Shown: positions 1-11,561, numbered from the stretch's first letter. The stretch: DNA of 11,717 bases from Nannocystis sp. ILAH1 (GCF_026626585.1 NZ_JAPNKD010000018.1:1-11717), one strand, 5' to 3'. A program made the numbers and translations. The notes: a model not told the origin generated them from the sequence alone.

Positions 1-448
1 GCACGCTCAGCTGCACGCTGCCGGTCTGGAGGTCGTTGAGGTCGGTGATGCCCGAGGCCTCGTGGACCATCATGCAGCGCGGGCTCTTCTGCAGGCCGGG
101 GACGAGCGCGACCACCGGGGCGCCCTGGGCCCGCGCGAGCAGGATCTCGCTGGCGTCGGCGATGCCGAACTGGACGCGACCCGCGGCCACCTGCGGCAGG
201 ACCGGGGCGTCGGGCCGCCCGGGCACGAGCTCGACGTCGAGGCCCTCTTCCTTGTAGTAGCCGTGGACGAGGGCGGCGAAGTAGCCGCCGTGCTCGACCT
301 CGGGGAACCAGTTGAGGGCGATCCGCACCTGCTGCGAGTCCTGCTGGCGGCCGCAGGTGACGAGCAGCAAGCCGAGGCAGGCGACGAGCAGGCGGACGAG
401 GGCGCCGAACCGCGGGCGCGGCGGGACCGGTCGGAGCGGAGCGCGCAT
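1..448 (-). CDS. ABC transporter substrate-binding lipoprotein, NMT1/THI5 (SsuA/TauA/ThiY-like) family. Only the N-terminal ~149 aa are present; the gene continues past the left edge.
   Basis: My translation of the minus strand from the ATG at 448-446 gives MRAPLRPVPPRPRFGALVRLLVACLGLLLVTCGRQQDSQQVRIALNWFPEVEHGGYFAALVHGYYKEEGLDVELVPGRPDAPVLPQVAAGRVQFGIADASEILLARAQGAPVVALVPGLQKSP... There is no stop before position 1. The N-terminus has a basic n-region, a hydrophobic h-region and lipobox-like LVAC/LVTC. The segment LNWFPEVEHGGYFAALVHGYYKEEGLDVEL matches the N-terminal signature of the NMT1/THI5 periplasmic-binding family (LNWxP...GYFKExGLD). Third codon positions are GC-rich. The ORF is missing from the supplied track, probably because it has no in-window stop. 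Confidence 0.6.
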   Translation of the reverse strand, partial: MRAPLRPVPPRPRFGALVRLLVACLGLLLVTCGRQQDSQQVRIALNWFPEVEHGGYFAALVHGYYKEEGLDVELVPGRPDAPVLPQVAAGRVQFGIADASEILLARAQGAPVVALVPGLQKSPRCMMVHEASGITDLNDLQTGSVQLSV

Positions 449-513: not shown

Positions 514-577
514 CATGGGGGCATGGTCTCGAGGACATGAATAAAAGAGCATGTCCTCGGGGACATGTGAAGTGTGG
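514..577. repeat. CATG-phased 14-bp tandem array, copy A. CATG at 514, 522, 536, 550, 564; four units are exactly 14 bp.
   Basis: Read directly. Units are CATGGTCTCGAGGA / CATGAATAAAAGAG / CATGTCCTCGGGGA / CATGTGAAGTGTGG. The 10-bp spacers are variants of the palindrome TCCTCGAGGA. The array lies between the reductase stop (719) and the substrate-binding gene start (448). Confidence 0.7.
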
Positions 578-718: not shown

Positions 719-1768
719 TCAGGCGACGGGGATCGGCGGCGGGACGATGCTGTCGGGCTGGCCGCCGGCGATCCGCGGGCGGCTGCTCTCGACCTGCTGG
801 TGCGGGGTGCCGAGGGCGATCGCGCTGGCGGCGTCGAGGCGGGCGAGCTGGGCCGGCGCGAGCTCGAGGGTGAGCGCGGCGAGGGCGGCGTCGAGATGTG
901 GGCGGGTGCGCGGGCCGAGGATGGGGATCCGCGCGGTCGTGGAGCGATCGGCGTGGGCCAGCGACCAGGCGAGGGCGACCTGGGTCGGGGCGACGCCGGC
1001 CTCGGCGGCGACTGCGACCACGGCGTCGAGGATGCTGGTCTCGCGCGCGGTCTTCTCGGTGTGGACGAGCATGCCGAGGCCGGTGAGGCGGCCCTCGTCG
1101 CTGGTGCGGTACTTGCCGGTGAGGAAGCCGCCGCCGAGCGGCGACCACAGGGCCGCGCCGAGCCCCAGCGCCTCGGCCATCGGCAGCAGCTCGCGCTCCC
1201 CGGTGCGCTCGACCAGGCTGTGCTCGATCTGCACGCCCGCGAGCGGGGTCCACCCGCGCAGCTCGGCGATCGCGTCGCCTCGCGCGACCCGCCAGGCGGG
1301 GAAGTTCGAAAGGCCGCCGTAGAGGATCTTGCCGGCCCGCGCGAGGTCGTCGAGGCCGCGCACGATCTCATCGATCGGGGTCAGGCCGTCGGGGAAGTGG
1401 ACCCAATACAGCTCGATGCGGTCGGTCTTGAGCCGGCGCAGGCTGGCCTCGAGCGCGGCGATCATGGTCTTGCGGCTGTTGCCGGTGGCGTGCAGGCCGC
1501 CCCCGACGCCGAGGGTGTACTTGCTGGCGACGACGAAGCGGTCGCGCTCGGCCGCGAGGAACTCGCCGAGCAGTTGCTCCGACTGGCCGACCTGGTAGGT
1601 GTCGGCGGTGTCGATGAAGTTGCCGCCCGCCTCGGCGTAGGCGTCGAAGATCCGCCGCGCCTCGGCGGGCTCGCTGCCGTGGCCCCAACCAGTGCCGAAG
1701 TTGCCGGTGCCGAGGGCGAGCTCGGAGACGCGTAAGCCTGTGCGACGACCGAATGTCCTGTACCGCAT
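719..1768 (-). CDS. Aldo/keto reductase (AKR superfamily, NADPH-dependent oxidoreductase)
   Basis: 349-aa ORF. The N-terminus MRYRTFGRRTGLRVSELALGTGNFG is the classic AKR start. Catalytic tetrad candidates are D/Y in FIDTADTYQ, K in VVASKY and H in WVHFPD. Third codon positions are GC-rich. AGGAG sits about 6 nt upstream of the ATG, read as reverse complement at 1774-1778. The overlapping ORFs 70..1371(-), 551..1735(+) and 675..1322(+) are low-complexity alternate frames. Confidence 0.85.
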   Translation of the reverse strand: MRYRTFGRRTGLRVSELALGTGNFGTGWGHGSEPAEARRIFDAYAEAGGNFIDTADTYQVGQSEQLLGEFLAAERDRFVVASKYTLGVGGGLHATGNSRKTMIAALEASLRRLKTDRIELYWVHFPDGLTPIDEIVRGLDDLARAGKILYGGLSNFPAWRVARGDAIAELRGWTPLAGVQIEHSLVERTGERELLPMAEALGLGAALWSPLGGGFLTGKYRTSDEGRLTGLGMLVHTEKTARETSILDAVVAVAAEAGVAPTQVALAWSLAHADRSTTARIPILGPRTRPHLDAALAALTLELAPAQLARLDAASAIALGTPHQQVESSRPRIAGGQPDSIVPPPIPVA

Positions 1769-1775
1769 CGTGTGC

Positions 1776-1830
1776 TCCTGAGGTGATTTTTAGATTATGG
1801 ACGTCATATGGAATCGGCAAGGGGATGGCG
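1776..1830. promoter_or_regulatory. AT-rich divergent promoter region between the reductase (-) and the MFS gene (+). It contains a direct repeat TATGGA(1796-1801)/TATGGA(1807-1812) and the GACGTC/CATATG palindromes.
   Basis: A local drop in GC (tgatttttagattatggacgtcatatggaatcgg) in a ~70% GC background, lying between divergently oriented genes. No -10/-35 consensus is asserted. Confidence 0.35.
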
Positions 1831-1895
1831 CGTGAGTTCGGTTGAATCGGGTCGGGCGGATCCGCGCGGCGAGGGCTTGCGATCCGGAAATTATT

Positions 1896-1912
1896 CGTTC
1901 AATGATTGAACG
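1896..1912. promoter_or_regulatory. Perfect 17-bp palindrome CGTTCAAT-G-ATTGAACG. Candidate operator for the HxlR-type regulator, or another dimeric wHTH repressor, abutting the MFS start codon.
   Basis: Read directly: 8-bp inverted arms with a 1-bp centre. It is AT-rich and lies immediately 5' of the ATG at 1914. HxlR/MarR-type regulators bind palindromes of this size near the genes they control. Confidence 0.5.
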
Positions 1913-1913
1913 C

Positions 1914-3278
1914 ATGGAGATGCGTCTGTCCCCGTTGGTCGTGGCCAGCCTGGCCGTGTTCGCGGTGTTCCTCGACACGACGGTGCTGTTCGTGGCGTTC
2001 CCGTCGATCGCGGCGACGTTCCCGGCGGTGCCGACGGCCGAGCTGTCGTGGGTGCTGAACGCGTACACGATCGTGTTCGCGGCCGCGCTGGTGCCGTTCG
2101 GGCGGCTCGCCGATCGCTGGGGGCATCGGGCGATGTTCCTGGCCGGGTCGATCGGATTCACCCTGGCGTCGCTGCTGTGCGCGGCGGCGCCGACTCCGGG
2201 GCTGCTGGTGGCCGCGCGCGTGCTGCAGGCGGCCGGCGGCGCGGCGCTGGTGCCTTCGTCGCTGGCGCTGGTGATGCGGGCGACGCCGCGCGAGAAGCTG
2301 CCGGTGGCGCTGGCGGTGTGGGGCGCGACGGGGGCGGTGGCCGGGGCGGTCGGGCCGACGCTCGGCGCGGCGCTGATCGAGGCGTGCGGCTGGCGCTGGG
2401 TGTTCGCCATCAACCTGCCGGTCGGGCTGGTGACTGTGCTGCTCGGGCGCCGGCGACTGGCCGAGTCACGCGACCCGGACAGCGTGCTGCCGGCGCCGCT
2501 CGGGGTGGTGCTGCTGGTGCTCGCGGCGGTGTTGATCACTCTGGCGCTGGTGCTCGGCGAGGCGTGGGGCTGGACGTCGCAACGGACCGCGGCGACTCTG
2601 GTGGCCGGCCTGGCGACCCTGGCGGTGTTCGTGCTCCATCAGGCGCGCACGCGGGCGCCGACGATCGATCTGTCGCTGTTCGCGGCGAGCAACTTCCGCT
2701 GGGCCAACGCGGCGACGCTGACGTTCGGCGCGGCGTTCACTGCGATGTTCCTGGCCAGCGTCCTGTTCCTCACCGCGGTGTGGGACTGGTCGATCCTCGC
2801 GGCGGGCTTCGGCGTGGCGCCCGGGCCGCTGCTGGTGGCGGTGCTGTCACCGCGGTTCGGGCGGCTGGCGGCGCGGATCGGCCAGCGACCGCTGCTTATC
2901 GTCGGCGGGCTGTCGTTCGCGCTCGGAGGGCTGTGGCGCCTGCTGATGCTGTCGGCCGAGGTCGACTACGCGATCGACTATCTGCCGTCGATGCTGCTGA
3001 CGGGGACGGGGGTGGCGCTGTGCCTGCCGCAGCTGTCGAGCGTGGTCGGCCAGGCGCTGCCGGCCAATCGCCTCGGGGTCGGCGGGGCGGTCCACCAGGC
3101 GCTGCGCCAATTCGCGGGGACGCTCGGGGTGGCGCTGGCGATCGGGCTGACTGCCGGGGCGAGCGGGCCGGCCGACGCGCTGGCGCGGTTCGACCGGGTG
3201 TGGTGGGTGATGATCGCCGGCGGCTTGGCGACCGCGCTGTGCTCGCTGCCCCTTCGGACAGGTCCGGCCCGGGCGTGA
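1914..3278 (+). CDS. MFS transporter, DHA2 (EmrB/QacA-like 14-TMS drug:H+ antiporter) family
   Basis: TM1 is LSPLVVASLAVFAVFLDTTVLFVAFPSIAATF. Motif A is GRLADRWGHR. Antiporter motif C is GAVGPTLGAALIE. There are many hydrophobic spans. The track ORF begins at 1842, but codons 1881-1913 have A/T-rich third positions and overlap the palindrome, so I prefer the ATG at 1914 (MEMRLSP...). The start is uncertain; 1842, 1902 and 1920 are all possible. Confidence 0.8.
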   Translation: MEMRLSPLVVASLAVFAVFLDTTVLFVAFPSIAATFPAVPTAELSWVLNAYTIVFAAALVPFGRLADRWGHRAMFLAGSIGFTLASLLCAAAPTPGLLVAARVLQAAGGAALVPSSLALVMRATPREKLPVALAVWGATGAVAGAVGPTLGAALIEACGWRWVFAINLPVGLVTVLLGRRRLAESRDPDSVLPAPLGVVLLVLAAVLITLALVLGEAWGWTSQRTAATLVAGLATLAVFVLHQARTRAPTIDLSLFAASNFRWANAATLTFGAAFTAMFLASVLFLTAVWDWSILAAGFGVAPGPLLVAVLSPRFGRLAARIGQRPLLIVGGLSFALGGLWRLLMLSAEVDYAIDYLPSMLLTGTGVALCLPQLSSVVGQALPANRLGVGGAVHQALRQFAGTLGVALAIGLTAGASGPADALARFDRVWWVMIAGGLATALCSLPLRTGPARA

Positions 3279-3291
3279 TACAACGAGCCTC

Positions 3292-3741
3292 GTGCGGCGC
3301 AAGCGACTCGACCGGATGCAGTGCTCGATCGCGCGGGCGCTCGACGTCGTCGGCGACCCGTGGACGCTGCTGCTCGTGCGCGACGCGCTGCTCGGGGTGA
3401 CGCGCTTCGAGGCGTTTCAGGCGCGGCTGCAGATCCCGCGGGCCACGTTGACGGCCCGCCTGGAGCACCTGGTCGCCGCGGGAATCCTCGAGCGCCGGTC
3501 CTATCAGGATCATCCGCCGCGCGAGGAGTACGTGCCGACGGCGAAGGGCCGGGGGCTGCGGCCGGTGATCGTGACTCTGATGCAGTGGGGCGACGAGTTC
3601 GCCCGCGAAGACCCACCGCCGACGGTGCTCGAGGACGCCGCCACGGGGCTGCCGATCGAGCCGGTGCTGGTCGACCGCGTCAGCGGGGCGCCGCTCACCG
3701 CGCTGCGGGTGCGCGCGGTCGGACCGGTGGTGCCGCGGTGA
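3292..3741 (+). CDS. HxlR-family (MarR-like winged-helix) transcriptional regulator. Probably a thiol-based electrophile/redox sensor.
   Basis: MQCSIARALDVVGDPWTLLLVRDALLGVTRFEAFQARLQIPRATLTARLEHLVAAGILERR matches the HxlR signature C-x-I/V-A-R-x-L-D-x-x-G-D-x-W-T, with an N-proximal Cys as in YodB/HypR/QorR-type regulators. The start may be the ATG at 3292 or at 3319. There is a ~45-aa C-terminal extension. Confidence 0.8.
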   Translation: MRRKRLDRMQCSIARALDVVGDPWTLLLVRDALLGVTRFEAFQARLQIPRATLTARLEHLVAAGILERRSYQDHPPREEYVPTAKGRGLRPVIVTLMQWGDEFAREDPPPTVLEDAATGLPIEPVLVDRVSGAPLTALRVRAVGPVVPR

Positions 3742-3752
3742 GGTTGAGGGAG

Positions 3753-3822
3753 CATGCTCGTTCGAGCATGTCCTCGAGTGCATGAAGGATGGGGCATGTC
3801 GGAGGAGACATGCGCGAAAGGT
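3753..3822. repeat. CATG-phased 14-bp tandem array, copy B. Five units: CATG at 3753, 3767, 3781, 3795, 3809, each exactly 14 bp apart.
   Basis: Units are CATGCTCGTTCGAG / CATGTCCTCGAGTG / CATGAAGGATGGGG / CATGTCGGAGGAGA / CATGCGCGAAAGGT. The array lies between convergent genes (HxlR stop at 3741, permease stop at 3822-3824). The last unit ends at the permease stop codon. Confidence 0.75.
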
Positions 3823-4610
3823 CAGGAGACTGCGAGCTCGCGGCCGCGCCAGCGGCGGAGGGCGAGCTCGCCGAGCAGGGCGACGAGGCCGAACAGCAGC
3901 AGGCCGAGCAGGGTGGCGGTGAAGATCGCGGCGAACAGGTAGGCGGTCTGCAGGCGGCCGGAGGTCTGGAGGATGAGGGCGCCGAGGCCGAGCTCGTCGG
4001 CGCCGAAGCCGGCGAAGAACTCGCCGACGATGGCGCCGATGACCGCGAGGCCGCCGCTGATCTTGGCGCCGGCGACGAAGTAGGGCAGCGAGCCGGGCAG
4101 GCGCAGCTTGAGCAGCAGCTGCAGGCGCGAGGCGTCGCTCATGGCGAACAGCTCGAGCAGCTGCGGGTCGACGCGGACGAGGCCGGTGGTGCCGTTGGTG
4201 ATGATCGGGAAGACGCTGAGGATCGCGGCGGTGAGGACGACGCTCTGCAGGCCGGTGCCGAACCACACGACGATCAGCGGGGCGACGGCGACGATCGGGA
4301 CGGTCTGCAGGAAGATCGCGTACGGGTAGAGGCTGCGCGCCGCCGTCTGCGACTGCGAGAACAGGACTGCTACCAGGCCGCCGACGACGAGGCTGGCCCC
4401 GAGGCCGCCGAGCGCGCCGAGGGCGGTCAGCAGCGCGGCCTGGGCGAGCTCGCCGACGTGGGCTGCGGCCTCGCGTGCGACCTCGGCCGGGGTCGGCACG
4501 AGGTAGGCCGGCAGCGCCAGGGCGCTGCAGGCGAGCTGCCACAGGCCGAGGAGGGCGAGGAAGACGAGGAGCGGCGGGAGCGCGGCTCGAGCGGCCGATG
4601 CGAGGGACAT
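3822..4610 (-). CDS. ABC transporter permease, nitrate/sulfonate/bicarbonate (SsuC/TauC-like) family
   Basis: 262-aa polytopic hydrophobic protein (…LLTALGALGGLGASLVVGGLVAVLF…IFLQTVPIVAVAPLIVVWFG…) with a BPD-transporter-like loop around GLVRVDPQLLELFAMSDASRLQLLLKLRLPGSLPYFVAGAKIS. It sits adjacent to an ABC ATPase on the same strand. Confidence 0.8.
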   Translation of the reverse strand: MSLASAARAALPPLLVFLALLGLWQLACSALALPAYLVPTPAEVAREAAAHVGELAQAALLTALGALGGLGASLVVGGLVAVLFSQSQTAARSLYPYAIFLQTVPIVAVAPLIVVWFGTGLQSVVLTAAILSVFPIITNGTTGLVRVDPQLLELFAMSDASRLQLLLKLRLPGSLPYFVAGAKISGGLAVIGAIVGEFFAGFGADELGLGALILQTSGRLQTAYLFAAIFTATLLGLLLFGLVALLGELALRRWRGRELAVS

Positions 4611-4779
4611 GCGAGGAGGCAGAGAGGAGAGGAGGAGGCGAGGTGCCGGCGCCAGGCGAGGGAGCGGGGAGATGTGGGGAGGAGGAAGGCCGGCTGCGGC
4701 GGCGGGGCGGGGATCGGCCGGGAGAGCTGTCCCGAGGGACTTGTGTGGAGGGACAGGTGCGAAGGGACAGGCGGAGAGG
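4611..4779 (-). other. 169-nt intra-operon spacer. It is ~80% purine on the + strand, so the transcribed minus-strand RNA is a polypyrimidine tract. It contains short direct repeats and there is no Shine-Dalgarno before the permease ATG.
   Basis: On the + strand: gaggaggcagagaggagaggaggaggcgagg … gagggacaggtgcgaagggacaggcggagagg, with AGGGACAGG(T/C)G repeated. The inverted repeat GTCCC-GA-GGGAC lies at 4729-4740. The GGAGG motifs are on the non-coding strand relative to the flanking genes. Confidence 0.5.
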
Positions 4780-5622
4780 TCAGGTCCGAACAGGCAGGTC
4801 CGAAGGGTCAGGCGGGGCGGCGGCGCGCAAGTGGGCGCGGACGTCGGCGGCGATCGCCGCGAACTCGGGGCTGCCGATCAGGGCGGCGCGGCGCGGGCGC
4901 GGCAGGGCGATCGGGATGTCGGCGACCACGCGGCCGGGGCGGCCGGAGAGGACGATGACGCGGTCGCCGAGCAGGACCGCTTCGGCGACGCTGTGGGTGA
5001 CGGCCAGGGCGGTGAAGCGGTCGCGCTCCCACAGGCGCAGCAGCTCGTCGTTGAGCCGCTCGCGCGTGAGCTCGTCGAGGGCGCCGAACGGCTCGTCGAG
5101 CAGGAGCAGCTCGGGCCGGGTGACGAGGGCGCGGGCCAGGGAGGCCCGCATCTTCATGCCGCCCGAGAGCGCAGTCGGCGGGGCGGCGGCGAACTCCGAC
5201 AGGCCGACGAGCGCGAGCGCGGCGTCGGCGGCGGTGGTCTGCTCGGCTTTCGGGGCGCGCGCGAGCTCGAGCGGGAGGCGGACGTTGGCGTGCAGGCTGC
5301 GCCACGGGAGCAGGGTCGGATCCTGAAACACGAAGGCGACCGCGCGGCGCGCCCGGGCCCGCTCGGGGGCCTCGCCCGCGACTGTGATGGTGCCCGCGCT
5401 GGCGGGCGCGAGGCCGGCTGCCACGCGCAGGAAGGTCGACTTGCCGCAGCCCGAGGGGCCGATGAGGGCGAGCAGCTCGCCGCGGCGGACGACGAGGTCG
5501 AGGCCGCTCAGGGCCTGCACGCCGCCCGCGAACTGCACGCCGAGGCCGCGGGCCTCGATGTGCGGGGCTGGGGCCGGCTCGGTCACGCGGCGGACGCTAA
5601 CACAGCAGCGGACGCGACGCAC
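4780..5622 (-). CDS. ABC transporter ATP-binding protein (SsuB/TauB-like)
   Basis: Walker A is GPSGCGKST. The ABC signature is LSGGMKMRASLARAL. Walker B is LLLLDEPFGALD. The H-loop is AVTHSV. The start may be the ATG at 5622 or, more likely, the GTG at ~5585 (VTEPAPAPHIEARGLGV…). Confidence 0.8.
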   Translation of the reverse strand: MRRVRCCVSVRRVTEPAPAPHIEARGLGVQFAGGVQALSGLDLVVRRGELLALIGPSGCGKSTFLRVAAGLAPASAGTITVAGEAPERARARRAVAFVFQDPTLLPWRSLHANVRLPLELARAPKAEQTTAADAALALVGLSEFAAAPPTALSGGMKMRASLARALVTRPELLLLDEPFGALDELTRERLNDELLRLWERDRFTALAVTHSVAEAVLLGDRVIVLSGRPGRVVADIPIALPRPRRAALIGSPEFAAIAADVRAHLRAAAPPDPSDLPVRT

Positions 5623-5706: not shown

Positions 5707-6492
5707 TCAGGCCTTGCGGGGGCGCGAGCGGCGGGCGCGGGCGGGCTTGGCCGGGGGCGCTGGGGGCTCGGGCTCGGGCTCGTCTGCCTCTTCGGGCATG
5801 TCCTCGAGGTCCGGTGCTTCCGCACCTGTCGTTTCGGACATGTCCTCGGAGCCCTCCTCGGCCTCGGGCTCGGGCCCGGCCTCGGGCGGGTCGGACGGGG
5901 CCGCCTCGAGGCCGCTGTTGCGGAGGGTGCGGGGCGGCAGCAGCTCGGGCTCGCTGACGACCTTCTTGGCCAGGAAGATGGCGGCGTCGATCTGGGAGAA
6001 GCTGCGGGCGCGGTAGAACTGGAGCGCGCGCTTGTTGTTGGCGGCGACCTCGAGGACGAGGTGCGTGCAGCCGCGCACGCGGGCGAGGTGCTCGAGCTGC
6101 TCGATGACGAAGCTGCCGATCCCGCGGCCCTGGAAGTCGGGGTGGATGGCGATCTCCTCGACGAACAGCGGGCGCATGTCGCGGCTCTCGAAGTAGCGCT
6201 CGTTGATCCAATTGTCGGAGCCGATGACCTCGTAGGCGCACTCGGCGTAGCCGACGATCACCGGGGCGTCGCCCTCGTGGATCTCGAACAGCAGCTGCTC
6301 GATGCCCTCCTCCTCGTAGATCTCGAGGAAGCGGGTCTTGGTGCGGGGGCGCTGGTACTCGACGGTCTCGCGGTTGACCGAGCGGAACACGCGCTTGAGG
6401 AACTCCCACACCTTGTTGAGGTCGCGGCGGTGGATCCGGCGGACACGGATGGTCGGCTCCGTGACGGCGGGCGCGGGCTTGCGGGAGGCCAC
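5707..6492 (-). CDS. GNAT-family N-acetyltransferase (~175-aa core) with an ~85-aa acidic/Pro-rich low-complexity C-terminal tail that ends in a basic KPARARRSRPRKA
   Basis: The acetyl-CoA binding motif is QGRGIGSFVIEQLEHLA, followed by the GNAT core LVLEVAANNKRALQFYRARSF. The start is GTG (rc of cac at 6490-6492). The tail is ...EAGPEPEAEEGSEDMSETTGAEAPDLEDMPEEADEPEPEPPAPPAKPARARRSRPRKA. The gene is co-oriented with and immediately upstream of the ABC ATPase. Confidence 0.75.
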   Translation of the reverse strand: MASRKPAPAVTEPTIRVRRIHRRDLNKVWEFLKRVFRSVNRETVEYQRPRTKTRFLEIYEEEGIEQLLFEIHEGDAPVIVGYAECAYEVIGSDNWINERYFESRDMRPLFVEEIAIHPDFQGRGIGSFVIEQLEHLARVRGCTHLVLEVAANNKRALQFYRARSFSQIDAAIFLAKKVVSEPELLPPRTLRNSGLEAAPSDPPEAGPEPEAEEGSEDMSETTGAEAPDLEDMPEEADEPEPEPPAPPAKPARARRSRPRKA

Positions 6493-6542
6493 GGCCGAAG
6501 TCTAGCACCGCCGAAGGGCCGCTCGTCCGCCTTGCGTGTCTG

Positions 6543-6552
6543 CGCACGTGCG
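6543..6552. promoter_or_regulatory. Perfect 10-bp palindrome CGCACGTGCG in the 75-bp divergent promoter region between the GNAT gene (-) and the beta-helix lipoprotein gene (+)
   Basis: Read directly. It is followed by GGCATGCTCGG, which is similar to the GAGCATGCTC motif of the CATG arrays. Confidence 0.3.
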
Positions 6553-6567
6553 TGGCATGCTCGGCCG

Positions 6568-8388
6568 ATGCGTCCCCGCGCCGCTGCGTCCGCTGCCGAG
6601 CCCGCGCGCCGGCGTGGCCGACGTCCCGGCGCGGGCCTGCGCCAGATCGGGCTCGGGTGCGTGGCCGTCGCGCTCGCTTGCGGACCGGACGAGCAGAAGT
6701 CGCAGAAGGTCGAGGCGAACCCGAACATGCCCGACCGGGTGCAGGCGCCTGCGCCCGCGCCGCGCCGGCCGGAGGTCAGCGACTGCCCCGAGGCTCTCCG
6801 CGAGCCGGAGCAGGTCGACCGCGTGATCGGCTCGGCCTGCAAGTCGGTGACGGTCCACCCGGGCTACCGGATCGAGAACGGGTCGCTGACGATCGAGGCA
6901 GGGGTGACCCTGCAATTCATGCCCGACGCCGAGCTGGCGGTCGGCTTCGAGCGCCCGGCGACGCTGCACGTGCGCGGCACGCCCGAGTCGCCGGTCCGCT
7001 TCACGGCCGCGGGCGATCAGGCCAAGCCGGGGGCGTGGAAGGGGATCGCGCTGTACGACCACGCCGACGGCTCGGAGATCGCCGGGCTCGTGCTCGAGTT
7101 CGCCGGTACGGACCTGCGCGGGGCGATCTACGTGCAGGCGACCGACGTGAAGATCGACGGCTCGACGGTGCGCGACAGCCAGAACGTGGCGGTCCACGTC
7201 ACGTCGAAGGGCCACGTCAGCAGCTTCAAGGGCAACCGGCTCGAGCGCGTGAGCTCGCCGGCGCTGCTGCTGCCGGCCCGCTCGGCCGGGTCGGTGACGC
7301 CCGACAACACGTTCCCGCCCGACTCGGTGATCCACGTGCTCGGCGGGATGATCCGCGAACGCGCCCGCTGGGACGTGCCGAAGGTGCCGTTCGTGATCGG
7401 CGGGGTGATCGAGATCGAGGGCCCCGACGACAAGCACGAGGCGATGCTCGAGCTGGCCCCGGGGACAGTCCTGAAGTTCGACGACGACGCGTACTTCACG
7501 GTCGGCTACGACCACCCGGCGGCGCTCATCGCCGAGGCGGCGGGCAAGGAGCCGATCGTGCTGACGTCGGCGACGCGCGAGACGTCGCACGCGTGGCGCG
7601 GGGTCAACCTCTACCGCTCGGCCACCGCGAGCTTCAGCAACGTGGTGTTCGAGTACGGCGGCCAGCGTTCCGACCGCGGGGTGGTCTACGCCAACAACGA
7701 GGCGCGCCTCAGCGCGAAGGGCTGCACGTTCCGCGACAACGGCGGCGGGGTGACGCTCCAGGGCGCGAACGTCCGCCTCGGCGAGTTCCGCGACAACACG
7801 TTCGAGCGCTCGCACCCGGCCTTCGACGTGAGTCCGCAGCTGTTCGGGATGATCCCGGCCGAGAACAAGCTCGACGCGGCGACGACGGTCCAGGTCGAGG
7901 GCGGCGAGGTCAGCAAGGACGCGGTGTGGCACGACTTCGGGGTGCCGATCGAGGTCAAGCGCCCGGTCTCGGTCGACAACCAGGCGACGCTGACGATCCG
8001 CGCCGGCGCCAAGCTGCGCGTCCACGACGGCTTCTCGCTCGGGGTCGGCGAGTTCGGCGGCGGCTCGCTGCGCGTCGAGGGCACGGCCGAGCGCCCGGTG
8101 CAGATCTTCGGGACCACCGACCGCCGCGGGACGTGGGACGCGATCCGCCTGTACGAGAAGGCCCGCGGCAACCTGTTCGAGCACGTGCAGCTGCGCAACG
8201 CCGGCGGCGAGGGGGCGATCAACGTCGCCATGGGCGTCGACGCTGTGGTCCGCGACGTGTCCTGCGTGCGCTGCTTCAGCCCGACGCTGACGTGGGCCTG
8301 CGGCTCGCGCGTGACGTCCGAGCGCGTCACGGGCGGAGCCGAGACGCCGGCGGCGACGCTGCCGCCGTTCGGCTGCGATCCGTCGTGA
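6568..8388 (+). CDS. Secreted putative lipoprotein of 606 aa, built from three tandem ~180-aa right-handed beta-helix-like modules, with a Cys-rich C-terminus
   Basis: The ATG at 6568 gives MRPRAAASAAEPARRRGRRPGAGLRQIGLGCVAVALACGPDEQKS, a basic n-region, an h-region and lipobox-like ALAC. There are three internally repeated A modules: LTIEAGVTLQFMPDAELAVGFERPATLHVRGTPESPVRFTAAGDQAKPGAWKGIALYDHADGSEIAGLVLEFAG / LELAPGTVLKFDDDAYFTVGYDHPAALIAEAAGKEPIVLTSATRETSHAWRGVNLYRSATASFSNVVFEYGG / LTIRAGAKLRVHDGFSLGVGEFGGGSLRVEGTAERPVQIFGTTDRRGTWDAIRLYEKARGNLFEHVQLRNAGG. Each is followed by a B module with Asn/Asp ladder-like tracts (GCTFRDNGGGVTLQGANVRLGEFRDNTFERS). The last 45 aa contain 5 Cys. The 5' 2 kb of track ORF 4609..8388 is an antisense artifact. 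The real gene is the 3' third, in the same frame. Confidence 0.7.
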   Translation: MRPRAAASAAEPARRRGRRPGAGLRQIGLGCVAVALACGPDEQKSQKVEANPNMPDRVQAPAPAPRRPEVSDCPEALREPEQVDRVIGSACKSVTVHPGYRIENGSLTIEAGVTLQFMPDAELAVGFERPATLHVRGTPESPVRFTAAGDQAKPGAWKGIALYDHADGSEIAGLVLEFAGTDLRGAIYVQATDVKIDGSTVRDSQNVAVHVTSKGHVSSFKGNRLERVSSPALLLPARSAGSVTPDNTFPPDSVIHVLGGMIRERARWDVPKVPFVIGGVIEIEGPDDKHEAMLELAPGTVLKFDDDAYFTVGYDHPAALIAEAAGKEPIVLTSATRETSHAWRGVNLYRSATASFSNVVFEYGGQRSDRGVVYANNEARLSAKGCTFRDNGGGVTLQGANVRLGEFRDNTFERSHPAFDVSPQLFGMIPAENKLDAATTVQVEGGEVSKDAVWHDFGVPIEVKRPVSVDNQATLTIRAGAKLRVHDGFSLGVGEFGGGSLRVEGTAERPVQIFGTTDRRGTWDAIRLYEKARGNLFEHVQLRNAGGEGAINVAMGVDAVVRDVSCVRCFSPTLTWACGSRVTSERVTGGAETPAATLPPFGCDPS

Positions 8389-8480
8389 GGCGAGCTGTCG
8401 ACGGGCGGCGCTCGGGCGGCGCGGGTGAGAGCTCGCGAGACAAGAGGTAATTTTTGAGCCGTAAAGGCTGGTTTGGGCGG

Positions 8481-8506
8481 ACAAAGGTACATATATGCAC
8501 CTTTGT
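8481..8506. other. 26-bp near-perfect AT-rich palindrome ACAAAGGT-a-CATATATG-c-ACCTTTGT, followed by TTTCC, inside a ~70-bp low-GC island (8440-8510). Possible bidirectional terminator hairpin or protein-binding site.
   Basis: Read directly. 24 of 26 positions are self-complementary. The island lies between convergent genes (lipoprotein stop at 8388, kinase stop at 8643). A UUUUU run at 8451-8455 precedes a small hairpin AGCC-GUAAA-GGCU at 8458-8470. Confidence 0.35.
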
Positions 8507-8573
8507 TTCCGGCCGCGAGCGTCGGTGCATGAGCAGGCGAGAGCGCGAGTGGGATGGATGATGAGCGCGCTGG

Positions 8574-8647
8574 CATGACGCATGGAGCATGTCGACGAGG
8601 ACATGCTCCGAAGAGCATGCTCCTATGGACATGTTCTTCGAGTCATG
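8574..8647. repeat. CATG-phased array, copy D. CATG at 8574, 8581, 8588, 8602, 8616, 8630, 8644, with spacing 7, 7, 14, 14, 14, 14.
   Basis: The sequence is GCATGACGCATGGAGCATGTCGACGAGGACATGCTCCGAAGAGCATGCTCCTATGGACATGTTCTTCGAGTCATGG. It contains GAGCATGTC-GACGAG-GACATGCTC, a 9-bp perfect inverted repeat around a 6-bp centre. The final CATG overlaps the kinase stop codon (TGA = rc of 8643-8645). In-phase ATGs also occur at 8561 and 8554. Confidence 0.75.
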
Positions 8648-11393
8648 GCCTCGAGGGCAGGTGCGTCCGCGGGCCGGCGCGGGTCAGCAGGCGCTCGCTG
8701 GCGGCCAGCGGGCGGGCGAAGCTGGCGCCGGCGCTGCGGTAGAAGGCGAGCGCGGCCCCGAGGTGCGGGCGAGCGGCGGCCACGGCGGGAGGCGTGGCGG
8801 TCAGCAGGGCCTCGGCGAGGGTGCGGTGGGCGCGAGCGAGGCGCGGGGCCCAGTGCGGGTCGTCGGCGGCGAGGACGGTGAGCTCGGCGACCGCGGCGGC
8901 CAGCGGGACGCGGGCCTCGAGCGGTCGGCCGCGGACGAGCAAGTTCTGGCCGAGGACCAGGCGCAGCTCGGCGATCTCCTCGCTCGACCAGGTGGCGTCC
9001 GGCATGCGCGCGAGGGTGGCCTGGAGGTGCTCGACGGCGGTGTTGTCGTCGACCAGACCGGCGAGGCCGCGGTAGCCGGCGAGCAGGGTCGCCTCGGGCC
9101 CGAACAGGCGCGTGCCGGACAGCTCCGACAGCTCGGCGGCGGCGCGGAAGACCGAGGCGGCGTCGTCGTCATAGCCGATCTCGGTGGCGGCGCGGCCGAG
9201 GTGGAAGAGGCACCGCGTGCGGCGCACGAGGTCGTCGGGCAAGAATCGCTCGAGCGCGACGCAGCCGGTCTGGAGGATCGACCAGGCCTCGCCCGGCTCG
9301 GCCAGCTGGGCGGCGGTGATCCGCGCCTCGATCGTGGCGGGGTGGACGACGCCGAGCTCGGCGTCGAAGATCTCGAGGGCGCGCGCGAGGAGGTCGTCGC
9401 GCGCGGCGCCCGGCTCGGTGACGGAGGCGAGGTTGAGCAGGGTGTAGCCGACGTCGCGGTGGCCGGCCGACAGGGCGCCCTGGCGCACGCTCAGGGCCTC
9501 GGTGAAGTAGCGCCGCGCCTCGGCCGAGTTGCGCTGGGCGAGGTTGGCGACGCCGAGGTTGTGCAGGACGAGGCCGCGCAGGGCCTCGGGGGCGGCGCCG
9601 CGAGAGGCGAGGGCGAGGGCGAGGGGCTCGTCGGCGAGGGCGCGAGCGACCATCTCGGGCCGGCGGCTGGCGGCGACGATCCGCGAGGCCACGGCCTCGG
9701 CCGCGATCGCGTCGCCGCGCGACTCGATGCCGCTGCGCATGGCCCGGGTCAACCACTCGAGCTCCTGGCCGGTCTCCTCGGAGGTGTTGAGCGAGAGCCG
9801 CCCGCGCAGCAGCGCGACCTCGGCCCGCAGCGGGGCGTAGCCGATCTGCTCGGCGGCGGCCTCGATGTCGACGGCCTGATCGACCGCGTCGTGGATCCGC
9901 CCGAGCTTGGCCAGCGCCTCGGCCCGCGCCATGTGATTGCGCAGGTCGGCGACCCGCTCGCCGAGCTCGGGGTCGTCGGGCGCGGGCGGCTCGGCCTTGA
10001 GGAAGGCGAGCTCGTGACAGGCGGAGGGCGGCACGAGATCGCTGGCGGCGCCGAGCGCCCGCGGGGCCATGTCCATGTCGGCGATCGAGAGGGCCTTGAC
10101 GGTCTCGTCGAAGGCGTCGCGCCGGCGATCGAGGCAGCGGCGCTGGCGATCGAGCAAGGCCTCGGTGTAGCGGCCCTGGTGCTCGGCGAGGCAAGTGTCG
10201 CGGTGGTTCTCGGCCCACGAGGCGGCGAAGCGATCGAGCTTGTCGGCGACCCTGGGCCACAGCACCGCGGCGTAGTTGGGCGCCGCGTCGCGCAAGGCGG
10301 TGGCGACGGCGTTGCGCTGGGCCGGGCCCCACACGCGGGCGATGTCGGCGTCGGCGTCGGCACACGGGGACTCGGCGGCGGCCTCGGGCACGAAGGCGAG
10401 GCCGGCGGCGCCGGCGGTGAGGGCGAGCGCCAGCGCGGCGCCGACGACCCGCCAGGTCCGCCCGCGCGACGGGACGAGCGCGCCGAGCAGCGCCTCCATC
10501 GACGGGTAGCGGTCGCGCGGCTCGGTCTTGAGGCCGCGCATGAGGGCAGCGATCAGCCACGCGGGCACGCCGTGGTTGCGCGGCGGAGGCCGCAGGTGGC
10601 CGTTGGTGATCGCGTGCGAGAGCGCGAGGATGTCGTTGCCGGCGAACGGCGGCAGGCCGAACAAAGCCTCGTAGAGGGCGACGCAGAAGCTGAACTGGTC
10701 GGAGGCCGGCTCGGCCGCGCCGCCGCGCCAGCGCTCGGGCGCGAGATAGGCGGGCGTGCCGAGGATGTCCTCGCCGTCGTCGCCGACGCGGATCCGCATG
10801 CTCTGACTGGCGCCCGAGGACAGGTCGAGCAGGCCCGGGCGATCGGGGGTAGCGCGCACGAGCCCGAAGTCGAGGACGCAGGCGCGGCCGGTGGCGTCGA
10901 TCATGACGTTGCCGGGCTTGAAGTCGCGGTGCAGGAGGCCCACCTCGTGGGCGGCGGCGAGGCCTCGCGCGGCCTGAGTGAATACGTCGTGGATCTCGCG
11001 CCAGGTCCGCGGCCCGGCGGCCAGCCAGGCCGGCAGCGCGGCGCCGCGGATCAGCTCCATGGCGACGTAGACCTGGCCCTTGATGACCCCGGCCTCGAGC
11101 ACGGTGATGACATTGGGGTGGCTGACGCCGGCCATCGCCTGAGCCTCGCGCAGCAGCCGGATCTGGCCCTTCGACCCGGTGTCGGGCAGGACCTTGATCG
11201 CGACCTTGCGGTCGAGGAGCTCGTCGTAGGCGGCGTAGACGACCGCCGTGCCGCCGCCGAGGCGCTCGAGGATGGTGAACCGACCGAGCCGCGGAGGCAG
11301 GGTCGCAGGGACCGAGATCGCGACACCAGGCAGCGACTGCGTGATGTCCACCGAGATCCCCGACGCGTCCGTATCGGGAATGATGACGCTCAT
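8643..11393 (-). CDS. Membrane-anchored Ser/Thr protein kinase: an N-terminal Hanks kinase domain, a single TM helix, and a ~570-aa C-terminal TPR-like/helical-repeat sensor region
   Basis: The kinase domain has the beta3 Lys in VAIKVL, catalytic HRDFKPGNVMI, DFG (VLDFGLV), GTPAYLAPE, and a glycine loop LGGGTAVVY. The TM segment is RVVGAALALALTAGAAGLAFV. After the TM helix there are 4 Cys and TPR-like stretches (LHNLGVANLAQRNSAEARRYFTEALSV). The track start is a TTG at 11435. I prefer the ATG at 11393 (MSVIIPDTD…). The 766-aa ORF 9169..11469(-) is an Arg-rich alternate-frame artifact. Confidence 0.8.
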   Translation of the reverse strand: MSVIIPDTDASGISVDITQSLPGVAISVPATLPPRLGRFTILERLGGGTAVVYAAYDELLDRKVAIKVLPDTGSKGQIRLLREAQAMAGVSHPNVITVLEAGVIKGQVYVAMELIRGAALPAWLAAGPRTWREIHDVFTQAARGLAAAHEVGLLHRDFKPGNVMIDATGRACVLDFGLVRATPDRPGLLDLSSGASQSMRIRVGDDGEDILGTPAYLAPERWRGGAAEPASDQFSFCVALYEALFGLPPFAGNDILALSHAITNGHLRPPPRNHGVPAWLIAALMRGLKTEPRDRYPSMEALLGALVPSRGRTWRVVGAALALALTAGAAGLAFVPEAAAESPCADADADIARVWGPAQRNAVATALRDAAPNYAAVLWPRVADKLDRFAASWAENHRDTCLAEHQGRYTEALLDRQRRCLDRRRDAFDETVKALSIADMDMAPRALGAASDLVPPSACHELAFLKAEPPAPDDPELGERVADLRNHMARAEALAKLGRIHDAVDQAVDIEAAAEQIGYAPLRAEVALLRGRLSLNTSEETGQELEWLTRAMRSGIESRGDAIAAEAVASRIVAASRRPEMVARALADEPLALALASRGAAPEALRGLVLHNLGVANLAQRNSAEARRYFTEALSVRQGALSAGHRDVGYTLLNLASVTEPGAARDDLLARALEIFDAELGVVHPATIEARITAAQLAEPGEAWSILQTGCVALERFLPDDLVRRTRCLFHLGRAATEIGYDDDAASVFRAAAELSELSGTRLFGPEATLLAGYRGLAGLVDDNTAVEHLQATLARMPDATWSSEEIAELRLVLGQNLLVRGRPLEARVPLAAAVAELTVLAADDPHWAPRLARAHRTLAEALLTATPPAVAAARPHLGAALAFYRSAGASFARPLAASERLLTRAGPRTHLPSRP

Positions 11394-11561
11394 GGGACTC
11401 GACCAGTCTTGCACCGACCCGCACACACGCCCCAACCGCGGCGTCGCGAGGCCGATGCGGCGCGTTCAAGCGGCGCCGCCGGCCCGTGGCGCGTGTCCGC
11501 CCGACCGCGACGCGCAGCGGGCGCTAAGCATCGCCTGTCCCAAAGTTCTAAATTGATGTGG

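Follow-up and report, generated by a model that had tools for sequence, protein, structure and literature searches.

Arrays of CATG in a strict 14-bp register at gene 3' ends in Nannocystis, an apparently undescribed family of extragenic repeats

INTRODUCTION

Why would a tetranucleotide recur every 14 bp between genes when the sequence between its copies is not repeated? The question is raised by a stretch of 11,717 bp from Nannocystis sp. ILAH1 (GCF_026626585.1, NZ_JAPNKD010000018.1:1-11717), hereafter the window, which has a G+C content of 73% and contains 44 copies of CATG over its whole length. Seventeen of the 44 fall in three short arrays, which we call A, B, and C. An earlier note on this DNA pointed out the arrays and attributed them to selection on phased CATG positions, with several candidate mechanisms put forward and no preference among them. 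We analyzed them in the window, at syntenic loci, and in genome and metagenome collections. They appear to be undescribed, lineage-specific extragenic palindromic repeats with an unusual architecture and unusually clear selection.

RESULTS

CATG is phased in the window

All steps between neighboring CATG cores of an array are exactly 14 bp, except for one 8-bp step in array A and two 7-bp steps in array C (Table 1). Past the last CATG of array B, the sixth in-phase core is a CAGG at 3823 that overlaps the permease stop codon, and array C also ends with an in-phase CAGG, at 8658. As a control for phased triplets, we generated 200 dinucleotide-preserving shuffles of the window. The pattern CATG-N10-CATG-N10-CATG occurs nine times in the window versus 0.00 times in the shuffles, which excludes a chance origin of the phasing. 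These results bear out the earlier description of five CATG spaced exactly 14 bp apart in array B, with arrays A and C phased too.

The earlier note had placed about 20 CATG outside the arrays; the actual count is 27. Because this number matches the approximately 28 expected from base composition, with neither avoidance nor enrichment, the arrays are not a by-product of a general enrichment for CATG. The spacers within the window arrays are unrelated to one another, unlike those of the non-Nannocystis matches described below, which argues against an ordinary tandem repeat as an explanation for these arrays. Tandem Repeats Finder misses arrays A and B, because the sequence between their cores is not repeated, and reports array C only partly (8598-8633, 72% matches).

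We found a fourth in-phase array, D, which is absent from the earlier note. It has the same flanks and period as the CATG arrays, and its cores read CCTG in the sense orientation of the ABC ATPase gene, whose last codons and stop codon (4780-4782) it overlaps; Tandem Repeats Finder reports it with a period of 14. Directly after array D, the gap of approximately 170 nt between the ATPase and permease genes (window 4611-4750) is almost pure pyrimidine on the sense (-) strand, with long CT-rich runs; on the + strand, its GC skew rises to +0.48 and its AT skew to +0.6.

Variable-spacer arrays among the genome matches come from Nannocystis

We searched one genome each from 185,579 species with a query of five CATG at 14-bp phase, which returned at least 110 stretches. 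Among the matches listed, 28 came from five Nannocystis species (N. exedens, N. pusilla, N. punicea, N. bainbridge, and N. radixulma), and 27 of these resemble the window arrays in having invariant cores and unrelated spacers. The other one, L075 from N. pusilla, repeats a GGACATG-containing unit nearly perfectly in tandem, and we excluded it from the motif statistics. All non-Nannocystis stretches among the matches listed are ordinary 7- or 14-bp tandem repeats with near-identical units. Thus, among these matches, variable-spacer arrays are restricted to Nannocystis. Close relatives of the genus also carry the family, at a lower density.

Over 235 kb of Nannocystis sequence, CATG forms chains at a 14-bp step and essentially none at other steps. 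Most of the Nannocystis loci were chosen for holding a five-unit array, so frequencies measured in them are biased upwards. Beyond the arrays that seeded the loci, we detected 16 more arrays of at least three units in 224 kb, or about 1 per 14 kb, which would correspond to roughly one thousand arrays per 12-Mb genome. The 20.8-kb loci from N. pusilla and N. bainbridge each contain six to eight arrays.

A metagenome scan for three full-consensus units returned 35 stretches, nearly all with 71 to 77% G+C. We found no arrays of the Nannocystis type in the viral contigs of IMG/VR. Six phage contigs from that collection (L136, L139, L170, L189, L190, and L192; approximately 46% G+C) have CATG every 14 bp with variable spacers. 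Their consensus is roughly (a/t)at(a/t)CATG, with flanks unrelated to those of the Nannocystis arrays, and they may be iteron-like protein-binding arrays.

The repeat unit has a core, symmetric flanks, and a free linker

The repeat unit is GGR-CATG-YCC-NNNN, a 10-bp palindrome followed by an unconstrained 4-nt linker. In 162 internal spacers, the consensus 3' of each CATG is Y-C-C, four free positions, and G-G-R, and the inner flanks are R in 87% and Y in 83% of cases. The linker is 53% A+T, against a genome of 73% G+C. The spacer had previously been read as a degenerate form of TCCTCGAGGA, but only the outer three positions on each side are constrained (YCC...GGR), and the central four are free. 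Likewise, the idealized 18-bp palindrome with a TCGA loop proposed in the earlier note does not represent the family consensus: perfect pairing at the three outer position pairs is seen in only 28 of 176 spacers, and a TCGA linker is not favored. Among the linkers, we saw no clear preference for the stable tetraloops GNRA or UUCG.

Arrays consist of three to eight units arranged head to tail. Spacing is precise, with 186 of 194 CATG pairs that lie 12 to 16 bp apart separated by exactly 14 bp. The outermost cores of arrays carry the same GGR/YCC flanks, and past them there is a fading in-phase unit. When we searched for arrays by their flanks alone, the cores recovered were CATG (46), CCTG (9), CAGG (6), and CCGG (3), with the transition variants CGTG and CACG found once each; from these counts, the core can be written as C-M-K-G, in which CATG predominates. 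Arrays have spacers in common only slightly more often than a position-weight null would give, and they are not recent copies of a master element. Isolated full 10-bp sites are rare (only 22 in 277 kb).

An extra CATG within the unit, located 8 bp past one core and 6 bp before the next, or in the mirror image of this arrangement, recurs in the Nannocystis loci. CATG pairs at distances of 8 and 6 number 15 and 19, respectively, versus 0 to 6 at neighboring distances. Examples are L008:5690, L012:7912, L020:4692, L031:4800, L071:7596, L087:313, and the pair at 514/522 in the window.

The composition of the unit bears on one explanation, in which a methyltransferase specific for CATG or RCATGY creates densely methylated patches that are read by a methyl-sensitive factor. 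CATG and RCATGY are sites of known restriction-modification enzymes (NlaIII and NspI types), the inner flanks are predominantly R and Y, and the core is the most conserved part of the unit. However, such a system leaves the strict 14-bp register and the GG/CC outer flanks unexplained, and isolated CATG are neither avoided nor enriched (741 observed versus 688 expected from composition). We consider clusters of methylation targets a very improbable explanation.

Cores and register are conserved at orthologous loci

We compared the window with syntenic loci from N. pusilla (L111), whose permease is 98% identical to that of the window, from N. bainbridge (L112), and from a 92%-identical metagenome relative (L118). 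More distant syntenic loci came from relatives with 86% (L116), 83% (L114), and 71% (L119) identity. A look-up of the window permease by its exact protein sequence gave no record. L111 and L112 both carry arrays A, B, and C at the corresponding sites. In unit-by-unit alignments, core positions are identical at 52/52 between the window and L111, 50/52 between the window and L112, and 82/84 between L111 and L112; the corresponding identities are 87, 60, and 66% for flanks and 69, 53, and 45% for linkers. Because random identity at this composition is approximately 30%, the linkers are near saturation, while the cores are almost unchanged. These alignments indicate purifying selection on the core and on the exact 14-bp register, and weaker purifying selection on the immediate symmetric flanks. 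The ortholog comparison and the annotated 20-kb loci are our least biased evidence, and they represent one genomic neighborhood in which the window, L111, and L112 are not independent.

The number of units in an array varies between species. Array B has five cores in both L111 and L112 and four in L118. The cores of array A at 536, 550, and 564 are kept in L111 and L112, and those at 514 and 522 are degenerate in different ways in each, which indicates decay at the edge of the array. Array C has six cores in L111; in L112, it has four cores, two in-phase degenerate ones, and a 14-bp unit more. Orthologous arrays differ in length by whole units of 14 bp, as seen both in this array of L112 and in the FG-GAP/helicase array. 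A check for loss of the CATG phase at the orthologous loci showed that it is retained in L111 and L112.

The variant array D is also conserved, with five cores in L111 and seven in L112, all CCTG and in a single orientation within each array. At the same junction in the outgroup L114, four CCTG are followed by CATG. L114 has only CCTG-type arrays in its 20 kb, and L119 has none; a four-unit CATG array is present on another contig from the sample that yielded L114. The orientation of CCTG/CAGG relative to flanking genes is inconsistent across loci. We considered whether CCTG is a one-directional form of a CMUG RNA motif, of which CATG would be the bidirectional form, and dropped the idea with approximately five orientations for it and five against.

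Young arrays are found in Nannocystis-like metagenome contigs. Two contain perfect arrays of eight identical units (CATGTCCTGCGGGG; L201:13-124 and L221:4005-4116), and three others (L203, L206, and L230) contain partly homogeneous arrays. The existence of young arrays with up to eight identical units indicates that arrays are born by tandem duplication of one unit, and by comparison the window arrays are old and diverged products of the same process. Thus, the earlier contrast between selection on phased CATG and decaying tandem duplications holds in part: cores and phase are kept across species as linkers diverge, and the origin is still tandem duplication. Higher-order repeats show that whole arrays can duplicate locally. 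At L064:7720-7960, each copy of an approximately 71-bp tandem repeat contains a three-unit CATG array and a G+C-rich segment, and L011:3672-4080 is a 400-bp run of diverged modules, each with CATG-aag-CATG-N10-CATG and approximately 45 nt more.

These patterns raise the possibility of a selfish or neutral repeat, either a minisatellite or an element like repetitive extragenic palindromic (REP) sequences and their REP-associated tyrosine transposases (RAYTs), which spreads by unit duplication or through an HUH-type enzyme that cuts CATG, and which is tolerated at gene 3' ends because it is harmless there. The expansion in one lineage only (among the matches listed), the identical tandem units that point to ongoing duplication, the differences in unit number between species, and the higher-order duplication of whole arrays all fit this explanation, and REPs, the closest known class, share the bias toward 3' ends and convergent genes. 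Unlike neutral relics, however, arrays at orthologous sites keep their cores and phase despite near-saturated linkers, there is no master copy, and spacers differ between arrays. We looked for a transposase beside large array clusters and rejected this candidate, as no transposase domain was found in the open reading frames (ORFs) adjoining the three largest clusters. The conserved tetranucleotide also differs from the GTAG/CGTC tag of known REP superfamilies (PMC3733652). A selfish or neutral repeat would explain the origin and expansion of the arrays, but as a full explanation it is quite unlikely.

In L114, the ATPase, permease, and NMT1 binding-protein genes are contiguous (10001-11752; 83% protein identity). 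In Nannocystis, the permease and NMT1 genes are separated by an inserted block of the reductase, MFS, and HxlR genes (719-3741), whose two junctions are occupied by array B and array A. We did not adopt arrays A and B as the ends of a mobile element around this block missing from L114, because both fit the general rule for gene ends described next.

Arrays lie at gene 3' ends

We placed the genes of the window by third-codon-position G+C and Pfam matches (Table 1). Array A lies approximately 150 nt downstream of the aldo-keto reductase stop codon (719) and approximately 65 nt upstream of the NMT1-family start codon (~448), with both genes on the - strand. The HxlR-type and ABC permease genes converge on array B, which occupies the 80-bp gap between their stop codons at distances of 11 and 9 nt. 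Array C is also in a convergent gap, between the end of the beta-helix gene at 8388 and the kinase gene, whose stop codon (8643-8645) is overlapped by the core at 8644. The earlier note had two arrays overlapping stop codons; this is true of array C, but array A lies well past the nearest stop codon and the CATGs of array B stop short of both.

Table 1. Arrays, genes, and a terminator-like hairpin in the window
Feature	Coordinates	Strand	Details
Array A	514..567	.	CATG at 514 (8-bp offset), 522, 536, 550, 564
Array B	3750..3826	.	Five GGR-CATG-YCC units, cores at 3753, 3767, 3781, 3795, 3809
Array C	8574..8661	.	Cores at 8574, 8581, 8588 (7-bp steps), 8602, 8616, 8630, 8644
Array D	4749..4812	.	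CAGG on + at 4754, 4768, 4781, 4795, 4809; one 13-bp step
Terminator-like hairpin in array A	540..567	-	Aldo-keto reductase sense strand; CATGTCCCCGAGGACATG then CTCTTTTATT; consensus scan
NMT1-family binding protein	<1-448	-	
Aldo-keto reductase	719-1768	-	
MFS transporter	1842-3278	+	
HxlR-type regulator	3292-3741	+	
ABC permease	3822-4610	-	
ABC ATPase	4780-5622	-	
GNAT acetyltransferase	5707-6492	-	
Beta-helix protein	~6600-8388	+	
Ser/Thr kinase with TPRs	8643-11435	-	

We then counted gene 3' ends with an array no more than 200 nt downstream, and mostly no more than 30 nt. Such ends make up 6/8 in the window and, by the depositors' gene calls, 10/16 in L111 and 7/16 in L112. In the outgroups, the figures are 4/17 for L114 (of the CCTG type, and partly coding noise) and 0/17 for L119. 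Over all Nannocystis loci taken together, we counted 29 arrays for 42 convergent regions, 16 for 102 tandem regions, and none for 40 divergent regions; these counts rest on crude gene calls for the 8-kb loci. Most of the convergent intergenic regions examined are occupied by arrays, and arrays in tandem gaps mostly adjoin the stop codon of the upstream gene. By array and gene coordinates, neither of the two divergent gaps in the window (1769-1841 and 6493-6600) has an array, nor do the divergent regions of L111 and L112. A seemingly divergent array, L001:3315, is in a tandem context, with the downstream start codon within its last CATG. The location of the arrays at gene 3' ends, as first proposed, is thus supported both by the share of gene ends occupied and by the empty divergent regions.

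Three stop codons consist of a core and the next base (C-M-TGA): that of the kinase lies in CATGA, and those of the ATPase and permease lie in CCTGA. This may be a coincidence. At L111:17609-17640 and L112:17704-17749, an array of three to four units lies within an annotated ORF of 400 to 476 amino acids. The N-terminal 165 residues of this ORF match an extracytoplasmic function (ECF) sigma factor (regions 2 and 4), and Pfam gave no match for the C-terminal part. G+C at third codon positions drops near the array, and a TAG directly follows the last core in L112; either a read-through of two genes or a fusion may account for the ORF.

A symmetric DNA-binding protein may read the arrays

The explanation that we tentatively favor, while stopping short of calling it probable, is that the arrays resemble bacterial interspersed mosaic elements (BIMEs) and are protein-bound boundary sites for a symmetric, oligomerizing DNA-binding factor where transcription units end, and that terminal hairpins contribute an additional feature at the RNA level. 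In this view, a symmetric (dimeric) sequence-specific protein would recognize the arrays as double-stranded DNA, with its strongest contacts at the CATG core and weaker ones at the GGR/YCC flanks, and would bind cooperatively to neighboring sites. This would account for selection on the core and the 14-bp register beside a free linker; three units span 42 bp, or four helical turns. A coated array after a stop codon or between convergent genes would act as a boundary, possibly as a roadblock or insulator that prevents read-through and collisions between polymerases, or alternatively as a topological or nucleoid anchor, as proposed for Escherichia coli BIMEs. The perfect hairpins of the outermost spacers would add an RNA 3'-end hairpin beside each stop codon.

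We favor a symmetric, cooperative binder of double-stranded DNA because the register is kept across spacers that cannot pair and because the site has a two-fold symmetry that is independent of the direction of transcription; the role at transcription-unit ends is suggested by the position of the arrays. Conservation graded from core to flank to linker, independent of position, is as would be expected of a protein-DNA motif. As a candidate reader, we considered CdbA, a myxobacterial ribbon-helix-helix nucleoid protein, and rejected it, as its motif differs, being a G+C-rich direct repeat separated by 4 bp (PMC7156744).

Hairpin potential and the case for an RNA element

The main rival is an element that acts in RNA. 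Hairpins closed by CAUG and transcribed from either strand would terminate transcription or shield mRNA from 3' exonucleases, in the manner of REP hairpins, and CATG would be favored as a self-complementary sequence that serves both convergent genes. The position of the arrays directly past stop codons, with none in divergent regions, is in line with this mechanism, as is RNA folding, since arrays A to C fold better than shuffled sequences on both strands (z = -3.0 to -5.8). The U-tract that follows the hairpin in array A on the reductase sense strand (Table 1) is a further point in its favor, and the T-rich spacer involved is partly kept in L111 (ctcttttcgt) and L112 (gccctttcac).

Other features of the arrays are difficult to reconcile with an RNA hairpin. 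A hairpin needs no particular tetranucleotide, yet CATG is 96 to 100% conserved, and the remainder of the stem shows almost no compensatory change: covariation in hairpin pairing is weak (z = 0.6, 1.6, and 2.8 for the three flank pairs), and that for a palindrome around one core is null or negative. In arrays of at least four units, only 28 of 156 spacers lengthen the CATG stem by three to four contiguous pairs, and 88 of 156 (56%) allow no Watson-Crick extension at all and still keep the exact length; full Watson-Crick pairing at the three outer positions is similarly limited, as noted above. We also oriented arrays in one-directional contexts by transcription and found that the motif is still symmetric, with 19 G·U and 24 C·A combinations. 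Because G·U is not favored over C·A, this argues against selection on RNA pairing. The lag-1 correlation between neighboring spacers gave no support for an alternating pattern of hairpins and linkers (-0.13; 8% of shuffles are as low).

Terminator features are similarly sparse. A terminator consensus scan found no hairpin with a U-tract in arrays B, C, or D, and the positions after the core in arrays are Y-C-C rather than a U-tract. Of the window arrays, only array A has a U-tract that supports the terminator proposed in the earlier note. CCTG arrays are direct repeats that fold like shuffled sequences (z = +0.55, -0.23, and +0.11, the first of these being the sense strand of array D). A known RNA family was rejected, since Rfam has no match at the arrays. 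We also rejected a loading site for Rho. Rho contacts approximately 13 nt per monomer, and the period and the conserved YCC resemble a Rho site, but GGR is conserved as strongly as YCC, and the arrays are structured and balanced in G and C. On this evidence, we regard an element acting in RNA as possible, somewhat on the unlikely side.

Several points nevertheless count against the proposed protein-bound boundary. The reader protein is purely hypothetical. When we folded 42 arrays, their mean was -36.5 kcal/mol, versus -33.5 kcal/mol in a null that preserves position-specific composition (z = -4.9), and the difference persisted against nulls that permute whole spacers (z = -3.8). Perfect hairpins of 7 to 8 bp are enriched in the terminal spacers, nearest the flanking genes (22/78 versus 6/78; P = 0.0014). 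Both results also speak for an RNA element. There is thus some selection for, or generative bias to, self-complementarity in the arrays, and array A has a canonical hairpin with a U-tract. The comparison of G·U with C·A has limited power, with only 45 spacers. The cores of CCTG arrays are uniformly oriented within each array (7/7 in L112), which is unexpected for a tolerated half-site variant, and these arrays may have a different reader. Finally, most loci were ascertained by a five-unit array, and their frequencies are skewed upwards accordingly.

A separate palindrome lies approximately 60 nt upstream of array C, in the gap between the beta-helix and kinase genes. It is A+T rich with 8-bp arms (acaaaggtacatatatgcacctttgt; 8487-8512), and another small hairpin, with T-runs, comes before it (8450-8480). 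N. pusilla (L111) has kept the palindrome and N. bainbridge has kept part of it; its role may be that of a conventional terminator or operator.

DISCUSSION

The arrays share many features with REPs and BIMEs: they are lineage specific, present in many copies, extragenic, palindromic, organized in regularly spaced clusters, capable of forming hairpins in mRNA, and concentrated at 3' ends and between convergent genes. BIMEs are also described as protein-binding sites, for gyrase, IHF, and Pol I (in part from PMC2817692). However, REP and BIME units are imperfect palindromes of 20 to 40 bp, whereas the array unit is 14 bp, with a possible hairpin of 18 nt, and neighbors share cores. REP superfamilies carry a GTAG or CGTC tetranucleotide tag at one end, in a source that makes no mention of CATG or myxobacteria (PMC3733652); in the arrays, CATG, or its variant CCTG/CAGG, is at both ends of every spacer. 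In addition, stems in the arrays show almost no compensatory variation (best z = 2.8; 88/156 spacers without extension), the arrays are positionally conserved between species with selected cores, and we saw no association with RAYTs among the neighboring ORFs of the three largest array clusters.

Other systems illustrate how a core and a register might be constrained together. MetJ metboxes are tandem 8-bp palindromes and the heptads of the omega protein are 7 bp, and in both cases the register is needed for cooperativity. Like the arrays, these operators are short symmetric sites arranged head to tail in strict register with a variable number of units. By analogy, they suggest how the arrays may work, and we do not propose membership: MetJ and omega operators are in the promoters of a few genes and have a known cognate repressor, whereas the Nannocystis arrays have a period of 14 bp, are at many gene 3' ends and in no divergent regions, and have a hypothetical binder. 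The RNA site of TRAP consists of 11 (G/U)AG triplets with two to three free nucleotides between them, bound by an oligomer with one subunit per repeat. It shares with the arrays an invariant short core, free spacers, and a fixed period, and so illustrates the same kind of constraint, but it is a single regulatory site in RNA, with one direction and a period of 5 to 6 nt, rather than a genome-wide family.

The remaining comparisons are more distant. Intrinsic terminators, including the mycobacterial TRIT motif, also follow stop codons, have hairpin potential, and work in both directions between convergent genes, and array A has a U-tract; most arrays lack a U-tract, most of their spacers are unpaired, and an invariant tetranucleotide in a fixed register is not a terminator trait. 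HIP1 of cyanobacteria is likewise a short, lineage-specific palindrome that seems to be selected, and it includes a tetranucleotide known as a target of methylation. Unlike HIP1, which is dispersed as single copies that include sites within genes, the Nannocystis motif is in phased arrays, and isolated CATG are not over-represented. CRISPR repeats are 23 to 55 bp, with spacers of similar size and cas genes nearby, and differ from arrays of three to eight units with 4-bp cores, 10-bp spacers, and hundreds of loci; there is no cas gene in the window. In the literature searched, which does not span all journals, we found no description of phased CATG arrays, in agreement with the earlier note, which did not recognize them as a described element class.

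Even on the most conservative account, the arrays are a new extragenic repeat family with directly visible selection on a tetranucleotide and its spacing, which is rare for REP-like elements. If a protein does bind them as boundaries, they would be categorically new. The strongest form of this idea, which is unlikely in our view, is a protein-based punctuation of the Nannocystis genome, in which more than half of genes end in a phased GGR-CATG-YCC array coated by a dedicated oligomerizing protein that stops or insulates polymerase from both directions. Such a system would be to bacteria what roadblock terminators are to eukaryotic Pol I and mitochondrial transcription, and would be a kind of element undescribed in bacteria.

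The arrays may be useful for genome annotation, for strain typing, and for terminator design in the engineering of myxobacterial natural products. How transcription ends in high-GC bacteria that lack U-tracts is a long-standing question, and the arrays offer a concrete, testable cis element for it, defined by a CATG core, a 14-bp register, and three to eight units, with natural variants such as CCTG cores and young perfect arrays. Should the arrays prove to be functional boundaries, an entire genus of high-GC bacteria with large genomes would mark its gene ends in a way unlike either intrinsic hairpin-plus-U termination or Rho.

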